From: Octopus vulgaris
Lineage: Eukaryota
Direction: 5' to 3'
DNA: 64,000 nucleotides
Assembly (NCBI GenBank): GCA_951406725.2
Contig: OX597825.1
Location: 21,824,001-21,888,000, forward strand
The number at the start of each line of letters is the position of its first letter. Position 1 is the first letter of the stretch. A program made the position numbers and the translations under genes. The notes under the pieces were generated by a model, which was not told the origin of the DNA, did not search any database, and worked only from the letters and a program-made list of their open reading frames with translations. This document shows, piece by piece, positions 5,371 through 62,039 of the stretch.

Positions 5371-7074
5371 TAAATTGATCAAAATAAAAACATGATGCGA
5401 AGGATTCAGCGGTACATATGTTTCGGGCCTTTATTAGACAGATTTATAACAATGCATAATGTATGTCTGTGGCCTTCTTCAGCCGCGCACAACAGCTTCC
5501 ACAAGGACATGTGTTACATCAAAAATTCTTGGTTGGGGATGCAAATCCTCTCATTCGCGTACGACATAATGCGGCAGCAGCATAGAATTGAAGCGTCCAT
5601 CTCTTTCTTCTCTCAATGTAGAATGAGGAAAATTGGATGTTGAAGTAATGTAAATAAATAAATACATATGTAGACGTGAAGATGGAGGGGCGAGAATTCA
5701 GGACGAGGGATAAAAAATGTATAAAAATTGTAAGTATAGAAAAATATAAAAATGTAGAGCATAAAGATATAAAGAGGTATAAGGAGATGTAAAGGGGGTA
5801 TAAAAAATATAAAGAAATATAAAGAAATATAAATAAATGTAAAGGCATAAGGTTATAAAGTAAAAATAGAAATAGAAATAAAAGTTAAAAAACATGATAA
5901 AAATGTAAAAAAATATAAAGATAAGGGATGTATAGAGGTTACGGACCAAGCATGGTGGTCAGGAGATTGATAAAATTTAGTTGTAGAATTGTCAGTAAAT
6001 CAACAGTTTCGTCTGGGGACCTAATGTGTTGTAAATCAGAGCTGTTGAGCGTTTAATCTGGTTCCTTGAATTAATTGGACTTCTAGTACATACATATCAT
6101 CATGGATACATACACCCATATACACGCGTACATATACGCCTCCAAGCCTATAAGCATACACACGCACTCGCGTGTAAACATGTACATAAACACACACACA
6201 CCCACACGCACGCGCGTACACATACATACATACAACAGAATATCCGCATGTATACACGGACACTATACTTGTACACACTCACATGTACATACGCGCGCCC
6301 ATCCCTACATACACACACGCATATGCCCACGCTTCCAGGTCTAGATATAAGATATTAAAGGATGTATATAAGAACGTATGTAAAGAATCACGTACTCATG
6401 TCTATACGTGCACGCACACACGGCTGTGTGTCCGTATGTGCGTGCACATATACACTTACACACACACACAGAGACACACGGGCATATGGGTATAGCTATA
6501 AGATATTAAAATATGTATGTACATATATGCGTGTGTATATGTATGTATGCGTATACACACGTACACGGACGCTCGTATAGTCAAAAAGTGGATCCATAGG
6601 TAAGTAAATAAACATATATAGAGGTGTAAAGCGATAAGTTAGGGGTAAGAATGAGGGTAAGGGTAAAAATTAGAAATAAAAGTAAGAAATACAGTATAAA
6701 ATAAGAAATACAATGTAATAGTTAGAAATGAAATATAAAAATTATAAAAATTATAAGAGTTAAGGTAAGGGATGAAAATAAAAATGAGAATAAATGGAAG
6801 TAGAATAAAAGTAAAAATAAAAGTAAAAATAAAAATAAAATAAAATAAGATAAAAATATAATTTGGTAAAGTTTAACATGAGATGAAGGTGGTTGAAAGT
6901 TAGAGGTGTGTGTTAAAAGTGCCCACGTAGGGGCGGGCGGGGGGAACTGAAAATTGGAAGGGTGGGAAGTGGAGTTTGGCGGTGTGCGTTCAACATCCGA
7001 GTTAGAAATGTGAAGGGGTATAGATATAGGGAAGTAAAGAGACTATATAGGAAGGATATGGGTGTAGGAGAAGA
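5371..7074 (-). repeat. Left arm of 1704-bp inverted repeat (inverted pseudo-LTR / 3' region of the PLE)
   Basis: Reverse complement of 9621-11324. Mirrored positions sum to 16695 throughout (e.g. ORFs 5392-5643 and 11052-11303), so there are no net indels; about 9 substitutions by eye. Confidence 0.97.
5409..5486 (-). ncRNA. Minimal type I hammerhead ribozyme (mirror of 11209-11286)
   Basis: Minus strand reads GCGG-CUGAAGA-A-GGCC...GGCC-C-GAAA-CAUAUG-UA-CCGC. Confidence 0.8.
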
Positions 7075-8728
7075 CTTAATCGACCTCATTACCAACATCA
7101 ACATTAGTAAACATAAGACCATTTCCAACACCCACTTAAGGAGCCTTAAAGATTTCCTGCATTCACTTAGGAACGATGATAGTCTTATCATACCCGCCGA
7201 CAAGACTGGGAACTGGTATAGGCTAGACTACCAAACCTACAAATCGCTCATCATGAGGGAACTTAGCAAAAAGTATAAAACTACTTCTACGGATAACCTT
7301 AAGGAAATTAACTACAAAATCAAGGAAGTTATGAGCAAATTAGACCTCCTGGACAGAACAGAACCTATTAAACCACAAGTACCCAAAATTACTATTAAAG
7401 ACCATAAGAAAGACTTCCCAGATAATGTAGGAGTACGATTAATCTGTCCGACTAAATCGGATATCGGCAGACTTAGCAAGACTATCCTGGACAAGGTGAT
7501 CCCACACATCAAACCCCACATCCCACTCCAACTATGGATTAACACCGACGATGTGCTAGAATGGTTTAACACTATCACCAATAGGCCCGACTACTCATTC
7601 ATCCAATTCGACATAGCTAGCTACTACGCCAGTATATCCCCCATCTTACTTAACAAATCCCTTATATTTGCCCGCAACCTTTCACTCATAGACAGAGAAA
7701 AAATTGACATAATACTATTAGCTAGAAAAACCATAATAGAATTCGACGGTAGACTCTGGACCAGATCCGATACCCCCGACAATTTTGATGTGGCTATGGG
7801 CTCGAGCGATTCAGCTCAGGTGACTGACTTGGTCGGGGCCTACCTGCTCAAGAAGCTTTTCTCCGAGGTACCGGATCTTCAGGGGGGTCTATACAGAGAC
7901 GACGCTCTCTTCATATACCCCACCAACAATAGGAGTAAACTAGAAAGAATTAGGAAAAAGATCAGGCTTTTTTTCAAATCCTTCAATCTTAAACTAGAAT
8001 TTATGACCAATACTAAAATAGTAAACTTCTTAGATGTTACGTTAGACTTGAATAAGCACCTTCACCACCCGTATAGGAAACCCGAAGAAACTACCAAATA
8101 CATCCATACCTCTTCCAACCATCCACCCTGTATAATTAGCACCACGGTCCAAGCCATCTCAGACAGACTGACAAAACTATCCTCTAATAGAGAAATTTTC
8201 AATAATCATGCACAACACTACAACCAGGCTCTCTATAGTGCCGGGTATAACCAGAGAATATCATATGTAGACCACCCGGGAGCGTCCGTCGGCCATAAAA
8301 CTCCCAATTATAATCGAACTCAGCACTCAACTCACACTAGCGATAATTCTAATTTAAACTCCAAACAACGTATAGGAAATAGGCGAACTAATAGAATAGC
8401 ACACAATAGTAACCCTCCCGACGAGAGCAATATAGATCCTATTAGGAGAAATAGAAGGGATAATAGTAGATTACGCAAATATATATGGTTCAACATACCT
8501 TACAACTTAGCAGTTAGGGGTAAGTTATGTAAGAGAATATTCTCTATCATTTCCAACAACTTCCCACCCACCCACAAGTATAGAAGTATCTTCTCCAACA
8601 AAACCATTAGGATTTCCTACTCTACCCTGCCCAACATGAGCTGCCTCATAGCTAAACATAACTATATTAATATTAGAACAGCTAGATCAAGAGCAAACCA
8701 TAGCGACCAACAGAACCCCCTCATCTAG
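7075..8728 (+). CDS. PLE reverse transcriptase, 5'-truncated (the ORF track start at 6962 is read through the inverted arm)
   Basis: PLE RT motifs: ADKTGN, RLICPTKSDIG, FIQFDIASYYASI (A), FDVAMGSSDSAQVTDLVG (B'), GLYRDD (C, YRDD at 7892-7903), VNFLDVTL, YRKP, YIHTSSNHP, IWFNIPY, IRISYSTLPNM. Confidence 0.92.
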
Positions 8729-9333
8729 ACAGTAGACAATATAACCAGACTGGCAGCCATACTACCCAAACAGTTAGTAATAACACCCGCCAACACAACA
8801 GAGGAAATACTACACCCATCAACAACCAGGAGGATATCAACGCCCCCACTCGTATTGCAACACCTCCGCCTGGGATTAGCAGCACACGACCGAATAATGC
8901 ACTGCAATGCAACTGCAGATGTGCATCAGAGTGCCCGCTGCAGGGCGCATGTAGGGCGAAAAACGTAATATATTCATGTGAGGTGAGTACTCAGTTTAAC
9001 ACACTCACCTATATTGGTTGCTCAACCTCCTGGAAATCCAGATACTACAACCACCGGTCCTCGCTGAGACACAGACATAAGGCTAACAGCACCTCCTTTT
9101 CTAAAAGAATTTGGGAACTAAAAGACAAACGCATAGGCTTCAAACTCAGATGGTCCATCATCGGATCAGCTGCACCTTATTTAAATAATAGAGCAGGATG
9201 CCAACTATGTTGTGTAGAACTCCTGAACATCTTGAAATTCAAAGACAAACACAATCTTATTAACAAAAGGTCAGAGTTCAAACCATCCTGTATACACAAA
9301 CTTATTAATACTTTCAAATACTACAAAGCTTAG
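8704..9333 (+). CDS. Cys-rich linker and GIY-YIG endonuclease of the PLE (-1 frame relative to RT)
   Basis: Frame is open 8704-9333: CNCRCASECPLQGAC, VIY...YIG, WKSRYYNH, CQLCCVE, LINKRSEFKPSCIH, stop TAG at 9331-9333. Confidence 0.88.
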   Translation, partial: RPTEPPHLDSRQYNQTGSHTTQTVSNNTRQHNRGNTTPINNQEDINAPTRIATPPPGISSTRPNNALQCNCRCASECPLQGACRAKNVIYSCEVSTQFNTLTYIGCSTSWKSRYYNHRSSLRHRHKANSTSFSKRIWELKDKRIGFKLRWSIIGSAAPYLNNRAGCQLCCVELLNILKFKDKHNLINKRSEFKPSCIHKLINTFKYYKA

Positions 9334-60557: not shown

Positions 60558-60609
60558 TGAGCTGACGAAAGAAATGTCGAATTGACTAATCTAGAAACGT
60601 ACGTTCTCA
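60558..60609 (+). ncRNA. Minimal type I hammerhead ribozyme
   Basis: Stem I UGAG/CUCA; core CUGACGA(60562-68); imperfect stem II (AGA..GUC-gaauu-GAC..UCU); GAAA(60594-97); palindromic stem III AACGUACGUU; predicted cut after GUU at 60605. Confidence 0.72.
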
Positions 60610-62039
60610 AATAACCTTTGCACTTGATTTTTTAATGTTTTTTCCCCCATACCTTTGTGAGTTGGTTTAGGCAAACACTATCTGAGAGAGATCTTCTTTA
60701 AGTATTAGAAATAGCTGAAGAAATTTCTTTAGCTGCTATTTCTATATATATTTATTTTACTAAGCCCTATATATATATATATATATATATATATATATAT
60801 ATATATATATATATATATATGTATATATGTATATATATATGTATATATATATATATATATATGTATATATATATATACATCTATATAAATATGTATATAT
60901 ACATGTATGTATATGTATATACATACATCTATATATATATATATATATATATATATATACATGTATATGTATATATATACATATACATTTATATATATAT
61001 ATATATATATATATATGTACAAACATATATATGAATATATATGCATGTATATATATGTGTGTGTATATATATATACATACATTAAGCCAATATATATATG
61101 ACAGTTTGGTAGGCGGCGAGCTCTTAGATTCCTCAGCATGCCAGTCAAAATGTTTTGTAACTGCATTTGGTCTATCGTTACCTTCTGAATTCGAATTCCG
61201 CCGCCGTCGACTTTTCTTTCCAATACTAATGATTTAGTCGACTAAGCCCTTCCCATAAAATTCAGGTCTTTCCTCTCTTCTACGAAAATTGTTTGCTCAA
61301 ATCTATCTTGTCCGGATTCTTGAATGCCTATGTCAGAGGGAAACACATACGTTCCCTATTATTTGATTCAATTCATTTCAGAAAGGTGCCGGTCTCTGTA
61401 AAGAAGACGAAGAGAATATGATTAAATGAGAAAGTTTGCATTCAATCATTTCTGAAATAGAGCTGACAGCATAAAACTTTTCAAATATATGCAAAACGTA
61501 AATATAAGCCAAAATAATGTTTAATCTTTCATCCTATTTGTATTATCTACGAAAACAGATTTATAATTTGCATAATTACTCTATTTTAATTAAAAAATAA
61601 AACCTTGTTTGTTTAGCAAATGGCAGAAGTGTCAGTATATGTCACCTTAGGTGATGGCCTTTTCATGAAAAAGATTATGTAGGTGAATATTTTGGGGTAT
61701 CCGTATGCATAGACCTACAACTTTCAACATACATACATTCACACGAATGCCACCATGCATGTTTGTTGTTTGTACGTATATACATACACACACACACACA
61801 CACATATATATATATAAATATATATATTTGTACATATATGTATGAATATATATATATATATATATATATATATATATATATATACATATACATATATATA
61901 TATATATATATATATATATATTATATATATATACGTATATATACATATGTGTATGTATATATATATTTAGATATCTGTATATATGAGTATATATATATAT
62001 ATATATATATATATATATATATATACATATATGTATATC

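Follow-up and report, generated by a model that had tools for sequence, protein, structure and literature searches.

The window analysed here, a 64,000-nt stretch of Octopus vulgaris contig OX597825.1 within which all coordinates below are positions, is AT-rich animal DNA with numerous microsatellites, and contains three insertions, named E1 (5373-11393), E2 (35608-35918) and E3 (59643-60768), each built of two head-to-head arms on opposite strands. Together they carry six hammerhead ribozyme (HHR) motifs, and each of their six ends borders (TA)n, with 12 AT-rich bases in between at the left of E3, which confirms within the window what an earlier note on this DNA had described. We consider it likely, with a probability of about 0.8, that three different families of Penelope-like elements (PLEs), all targeting (TA)n, inserted here independently, each insertion comprising a main copy with a long 3' end and an inverted, shorter copy with a short 3' end; the earlier reading of them as PLE-type, HHR-bearing and targeted to (TA)n is upheld. 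Data from outside the window are public contigs of four sequencing runs, aligned to E2 only, and published papers, among which PMC8557442, PMC3846280, PMC11167929, PMC3088659, PMC3884650, PMC13282606 and the preprint bioRxiv 10.64898/2026.07.22.740005 are cited for the accessible parts of their text.

The observation is real and mostly explained by published PLE biology. New are another family of the Hydra clade, represented by E1, and a short, abundant family, represented by E2, in whose hammerhead the core is swapped, although the families of E1, E2 and E3 may already be filed in preprint supplements, the Craig archive or Repbase. The architecture, noted earlier as shared by the three, is not supported as a new design; it is an already described PLE pattern (PMC8557442, PMC3846280, PMC4209133) and alone adds little to what is in print. 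Hydra-clade families carry HHRs and nearly all insert in (TA)n, and an inverted copy and a one-sided tail of 30-40 nt are usual for PLEs (PMC8557442); head-to-head is the most frequent PLE arrangement (PMC3846280), and minimal HHRs paired 100-700 bp apart on opposite strands are known, most scattered motifs probably being truncated PLEs (PMC4209133). The Craig supplement (PMC8557442) lists Hydra-1_Obim from Octopus bimaculoides, with an HHR and a (TA)n target; for Penelope-13_HM it records an inverted copy, truncated at 5', that lies at the 5' end, and HHRs on both strands. U is common at the cleavage site in its table. The motifs of E1, E2 and E3 were not found in the searched text of that supplement, in which line breaks could mask motifs, and those of E2 and E3 did not turn up in the searched text, which has no sequences, of the Octopus vulgaris supplement (PMC13282606).

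Three head-to-head insertions in (TA)n tracts

No match among the three elements exceeds 14 nt in length, which bears out the view that they have no obvious similarity. Tracts of at least 12 TA letters make up 3.4% of the window and all three insertions lie in such tracts (chance probability p ~4e-5, for elements picked after the fact). A descriptor of the type I HHR requiring a palindromic stem III found four sites in the window, two in E1 and two in E3, against a mean of 0.03 and a maximum of 1 in 100 shuffled windows. Both E2 motifs were missed by the HHR descriptors applied to the window because each E2 arm has a decayed position, and Rfam gave no hammerhead among the matches listed (150 of 246). 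The distances from the HHRs to the element ends are 36, 107, 82, 102, 159 and 283 nt; one falls outside the 40-180 nt proposed before. Monomer folds of four HHR regions are no more stable than shuffles (z +0.70, -1.66, +0.43 and +0.77), as expected where motifs need dimers, and dimer folding gave a clean dimer form from the E1 HHR only.

The insertions resemble typical PLEs (Arkhipova et al. 2013, PMC3846280; Frangieh et al. 2024, PMC11167929) in their head-to-head arms, tail at one end, two 3' ends and partial tandems, and differ in that target duplications are unreadable in (TA)n here. E2 and E3, neither of which matches a PLE protein profile, both show the mark of PLE-type insertion, i.e., head-to-head arms with a tail on one end.

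That the inverted arms could be assembly fold-back artefacts is scarcely credible. Palindromes beside microsatellites are hard to assemble and none of the listed contigs spans the whole of E2, so the E2 locus of the window is itself unconfirmed by contigs; against this, the arms differ in sequence (by 9 substitutions in E1, by 16% in E2 and by indels in E3), a unique 2.5-kb loop and a one-sided tail are present in E1, and in runs X1, X7 and X13 there are contigs, from other copies, that span a centre like that of E2.

The coding element E1

The features of E1 are as follows.
5357..5372, left (TA)n target tract
5373..7074, minus strand, inverted 5'-truncated copy of the 3' end, with the short end and no tail
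5409..5486, minus strand, type I minimal HHR with C3-G8 core, long loop II and palindromic stem III
7075..8728, plus strand, PLE reverse transcriptase (RT) assigned to the Hydra clade, 5'-truncated with ~70 N-terminal residues lost (profile match; DKT, YRDD)
8704..9333, plus strand, CxCX5C linker and GIY-YIG endonuclease (EN), in a different frame from the RT (profile match, motifs)
9334..11324, plus strand, 3' untranslated region or pseudo-long terminal repeat (pLTR), ~2 kb
11209..11286, plus strand, HHR of the main copy, two copies of which form a dimer fold via stem III
11325..11393, plus strand, one-sided tail, 69 nt, AC-rich
11394..11451, right (TA)n tract

The arms of E1 (5371-7074, minus, and 9621-11324, plus) are identical at 1695 of 1704 nt (99.5%) and enclose the unique loop, and the plus arm extends 69 nt beyond the match, ending at 11393. 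Pfam recognised neither RT nor EN, whereas a homolog search recognised both, with best homologs from Argonauta and Octopus; a scan of a metagenome collection gave no match to the E1 protein. Against a PLE profile of length 708, built from 24 full-length homologs (640-760 in length) among 64 returned, the RT covers positions 72-561 (best piece E 5.5e-132) and the linker with EN positions 558-701 (E 3.7e-41), a frameshift between 8701 and 8827 separating the two.

By profile and clade motifs, E1 is classed as a 5'-truncated, frameshifted PLE of the Hydra clade, and it shows all the marks of that clade that can be tested in its sequence: an RT followed by a GIY-YIG endonuclease at the C terminus, DKT instead of DKG, YRDD, a CxCX5C linker, CxxC and CxH, an HHR near the 3' end, a (TA)n target and an inverted 5'-truncated copy. 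Like other members, it has no CCHH cysteine pair, with a single cysteine between the GIY and YIG halves and no CX2-5CxxC, and the Neptune/Nematis linker is not present. The N-terminal RWK region, found as RW[KR] in 19 of the 24 full-length homologs, was lost by 5' truncation. One mark, that of size, does not fit: the main copy measures 4.3 kb despite its truncation, against the <3 kb usual in the clade, a length given as 'generally' rather than as a strict criterion (PMC8557442). Compared with Hydra-1_Obim, E1 is another family: its HHR is different and has a long loop II, its 3' region measures 2 kb and its tail 69 nt. Unlike the tails of PAc and Pen2a_Av, which resemble the starts of their open reading frames (ORFs), that of E1 gave no such likeness when scored (p 0.53), and this reading of it was rejected.

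E1 also has two low-complexity insertions, rich in N, T and R, that the homolog profile lacks (8282-8443 and 8702-8826), which recall the asparagine-rich inserts in Adineta Penelope ORFs (PMC3846280).

The E2 family and its G3-C8 hammerhead

The features of E2 are as follows.
35534..35607, left (TA)37
35608..35749, minus strand, inverted arm with the short 3' end
35690..35740, minus strand, HHR with G3 at 35733 and C8 at 35728, decayed at G10.1 and in stem I
35750..35918, plus strand, main arm, from the common 5' start of the family to the long 3' end
35765..35815, plus strand, HHR with G3-C8 core (35773-35779) and U17, with a decayed stem III base at 35803
35882..35918, plus strand, tail of the family, behind an internal deletion of ~30 nt
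35919..35949, right (TA)15

The two arms are 84% alike over 259 columns. Alignment to contigs of the four runs, which bear four organism labels and stem from four studies, at a likeness cut-off of 80%, returned 14,984, 5,293, 12,610 and 8,667 matching contigs, most of them 90-99% alike. Since summed contig depth is not copy number, it was divided by single-contig depth, giving roughly 3,000-90,000 copies, an order of magnitude only. Scans of the metagenome collection and of viral contigs gave no match to the E2 pattern.

The family has two 3' ends, because 194 contigs of run X1 continue from 35607 into sequence overlapping 35880 onward, the tail, while 67 pass from 35608 into AT/TA letters. 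The 37 nt at the right end of E2, taken earlier for a filler, are the tail of the family, since the loose ends before 35607 and before 35880 both overlap 35882-35918. The inversion centre is variable: in other head-to-head copies an inverted arm cut at 35633-35714 is joined to a main arm at 35750-35759, the depth at the centre is 0.1-0.3% of that at 35762, and joints that go back within the element show partial tandems (15 of 235 joints listed).

These results bear on the reading of E2 and E3 as MITEs (miniature transposable elements with inverted repeats) or as DNA transposons of the fold-back type, with a duplicated TA target and an accidental likeness to HHRs. Both are short, palindromic and flanked by TA, and E2 is very abundant; yet their termini are not mutual inverted repeats, two alternative 3' ends occur, the variable centre and partial tandems are seen in the E2 family, and the HHR matches of E3 are far above chance, so that this reading is very improbable. 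For E2 it is largely rejected, as there are no fixed terminal inverted repeats and the interior is not constant. As the cut points of the inverted arm vary between copies, the inversion was built at each insertion, which excludes a MITE and, equally, a fold-back artefact of assembly. A warning follows that TA-flanked palindromes may be misfiled as DNA transposons.

The plus-strand HHR has a stem I of 7-8 bp, a bulged purine and a stem II of 5 bp. In both motifs the decayed positions are restored by the family majority: with its letters (95-99.9% of depth) at 35693, 35725 and 35803, stem I, G10.1 and the palindromic stem III are all complete. The majority thus has the parts of a type I minimal HHR, i.e., stems I and II, a bulged base after A9, G10.1-C11.1 and a palindromic stem III, with G3-C8 in place of the canonical C3-G8 core. 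By its pairing it is hammerhead-like rather than a canonical member. C>G and G>C differences at 5% or above all map to other positions (35660, 35790 and 35821, in all four runs), hence no reversion of the core reaches 5% in any run. Other common variants keep a wobble pair (35811/35694 and 35798) or reflect CpG decay (35784).

A natural compensatory swap to G3-C8 should preserve the 3-8 pair and a weak, dimer-dependent cleavage. Natural covariation of this pair has been published as U3-A8 (PMC3088659, PMC4209133), and an engineered G3-C8 partly restores cleavage of a PLE HHR (PMC11167929; also PMC3884650). In the literature searched G3-C8 was found only as this engineered, partly active mutant; the PLE variant catalogue of Lunse et al. 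2017, which lay outside that search, may list it. E2 resembles the PLE HHRs of Schistosoma (Cervera and de la Pena 2014, PMC4209133) in that its minimal HHRs lie on opposite strands, stem II is preceded by a bulged base, stem III is palindromic and the 3-8 change is compensatory, and differs in having G3-C8 where theirs is U3-A8 and in motifs only ~25 nt apart. If it holds, a natural high-copy G3-C8 hammerhead would extend the known U3-A8 covariation, and censuses based on CUGANGA would overlook whole repeat families, also in PLE clades said to lack HHRs.

The 5' side of the family is mixed. In run X1, 137 contigs lose the consensus within ~18 nt upstream of stem I, and 76 continue further 5' with ~20 shared letters resembling the end of an intron, from which it follows that a longer E2 parent exists. 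These letters resemble a branch point and a pyrimidine tract, and they precede the AG at 35750-35751, a candidate 3' splice site just upstream of the HHR, where loose ends occur in three of the four runs. The intron of Drosophila virilis Penelope ends at helix I of its HHR (PMC4209133).

E3 and the origin of the inverted pairs and short elements

The features of E3 are as follows.
59499..59642, left (TA)n tract and 12 AT-rich bases
59643..60302, minus strand, long arm A(106)-B(448)-A(106), 1.2 turns of a 554-nt unit
59926..59977, minus strand, HHR with C3-G8 core, palindromic stem III and U17
60303..60768, plus strand, short arm, the final 37 nt of A together with B; its end is at the start of the internal (TA)4 of the unit
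60558..60609, plus strand, HHR of the plus arm
60768..60819, right (TA)n tract

The two A copies are identical (59643-59748 and 60197-60302), the arms differ by 4 substitutions and 4 indel or replacement events over ~440 nt, and the A|B join is present in both. The unit is non-coding, with a longest open frame of 62 codons, and viral contig scans gave no match to its pattern. On sequence grounds E3 would be either a retrozyme-like unit or a PLE stub. Should its arms derive from two RNAs, the unit serving as template was in tandem or circular, as in animal retrozymes; should one arm be a copy of the other, stubs of a coding PLE in partial tandem may make up E3. The unit also contains a near-perfect 43-nt palindrome (59790-59832 and 60704-60744) that holds the first half of an HHR core; palindromes have been described in the pLTRs of Adineta PLEs (PMC3846280).

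For the formation of the pairs we lean, with some reserve, towards priming from both ends of the break. A GIY-YIG nuclease would cut both strands in (TA)n, and the RT, probably as a dimer, would prime complementary DNA (cDNA) from each end on element RNA, starting at either of two internal sites, with or without the tail; both cDNAs would stop early and be joined at their 5'-truncated ends, giving a head-to-head pair. Seven of the nine differences between the E1 arms lie within 98 nt (p ~7e-6), which supports two templates. On AT-rich DNA the purified PAc protein, a predicted dimer, cuts both strands and extends both; it initiates at two sites within the RNA, the distance between which equals the tail, and insertion did not require HHR cleavage (PMC11167929). 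The earlier proposal that both ends of a break prime is thus plausible in that PAc extends both strands from two RNA starts, yet it is not twin priming of the L1 type. The self-complementarity of (TA)n, offered as the cause, is not supported as an explanation of the pairs: Pen2a_Av, whose target-site duplication is 9 bp long, likewise has a tail and an inverted pLTR (PMC3846280), and since it shows the same form, two-ended priming has no need of (TA)n. The label itself does not suit the pairs, as both arms here hold a 3' end. In L1 twin priming the 5' part of one RNA is inverted and the 3' end is not duplicated. Families such as that of E2 offer thousands of natural insertion products from which two-ended priming and fold-back could be told apart by computation.

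Fold-back, in which a first cDNA, on reaching the 5' end of the RNA, primes again from itself and copies its own beginning, with resolution before the tail, is a serious though less favoured possibility. It would account for the nesting of the short arm within the tailed arm in all three insertions, and the short arm of E3 ends at the internal (TA)4 of the unit, a possible cut site; the clustering of the E1 differences and the extension of both strands in vitro (PMC11167929) speak against it.

Several points weigh against three independent PLE insertions formed in this way. The tailed arm spans the other arm at both ends in 3/3 insertions where independent truncation predicts 1/8, self-priming has been proposed for such structures (PMC3846280), and the clustered differences of E1 could be due to later gene conversion. 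The evidence on E1 and E3 comes from one copy of each; the ~2-kb 3' region and 69-nt tail of E1 are larger than published for Hydra elements (<3 kb in size, with tails of 30-40 nt), and the tail shows no resemblance to an ORF start. Self-cleavage is predicted only, for all HHR motifs, and the E2 variants listed include no change on both sides of a stem pair.

The clustered differences of E1 lie at 10214-10311 and 6384-6481, a mosaic template or a conversion tract.

As to their origin, E2 and E3 would be short, HHR-bearing 3' ends of PLEs, each mobilised through recognition of its own cis-sequence by a PLE protein; they were not demonstrably moved by E1. The proposal that the E1 family supplies RT and EN to both is not supported and is improbable. 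All three elements use (TA)n and have in common a 5-nt word close to one of their ends (p 0.04, post hoc); E2 and E3 further share one of 8 nt close to ends (p 0.03, post hoc). Beyond the 5-nt word, however, no 3' sequence is shared and no match exceeds 14 nt, and the arm divergence differs: E1 is young (99.5% alike), whereas E2 is old (84%) and common to four labelled organisms. Moreover, cross-mobilisation between PLE types was not seen in Adineta (PMC3846280), and Octopus vulgaris has 190 Penelope-like families making up 6.83% of its genome (PMC13282606), so that three families with a common target suffice.

A helper-satellite origin, in which E2 (~200 nt) and E3 (a 554-nt circle or tandem) are non-autonomous RNAs without a coding parent, moved in trans by some (TA)n-targeting PLE, is compatible with the main explanation, as it concerns only where E2 and E3 came from, and we regard it as an open contender that falls somewhat short of even odds. 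The A|B join shared by both E3 arms, the lack of a long frame in the unit, the abundance of E2 and the 137 X1 contigs that lose the consensus near stem I agree with it, and non-autonomous PLE derivatives are in print (bioRxiv 10.64898/2026.07.22.740005; PMC8557442). Both elements resemble animal non-LTR retrozymes (bioRxiv 10.64898/2026.07.22.740005) and non-autonomous Chlamys elements as short, non-coding HHR units related to pLTRs, and the 554-nt unit lies within the reported retrozyme range of 51-972 nt; the accessible preprint text does not discuss inverted pairs in (TA)n. In contrast with retrozymes, neither E2 nor E3 has two tandem HHR units here, E3 having 1.2 units and one HHR per arm where at least two are the mark. 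The 76 X1 contigs that extend further 5' point to a longer parent, 5'-truncated stubs are a normal product of coding PLEs (bioRxiv 10.64898/2026.07.22.740005; PMC4209133), and the A|B join could have arisen once at E3 insertion and then been copied by fold-back.

The fullest version, in which E2 would be a ~200-nt parentless ribozyme RNA with a working G3-C8 hammerhead overlooked by standard descriptors, spread in several cephalopod genomes, where it reaches thousands of copies, by a PLE targeting (TA)n and priming both ends of its cut, and E3 a circular 554-nt satellite spread likewise, is unlikely. If the parentless-satellite reading were true, many TA-flanked 'MITEs' of molluscs would be PLE satellites.

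The 5-nt word is CAATT, near one 3' end of each element (minus-strand ends 5373-5377, 35611-35615 and 59649-59653; p 0.04 post hoc), and the 8-nt word near the ends of E2 and E3 is CAATTGTT (p 0.03 post hoc). Behind the right TA tract of E2, an AT-rich stretch at 35950-36356 (plus strand), with TA at 36357, is a possible fourth, decayed PLE stub; it has a small inverted repeat at ~35961-36007 and an HHR-like motif at 36190-36290 with U3, a long loop II and a palindromic stem III, without stem I, and the relaxed scan behind this motif gives 3.3 matches per shuffled window, so that it is not significant alone. Finally, the window contains three young tandem arrays in which no HHR was found, at 18126-18503 (62 nt x 6), 40164-40643 (~160 nt x 3) and 53771-54773 (~335 nt x 3), and the ~335-nt repeat of the last is dispersed through the window.

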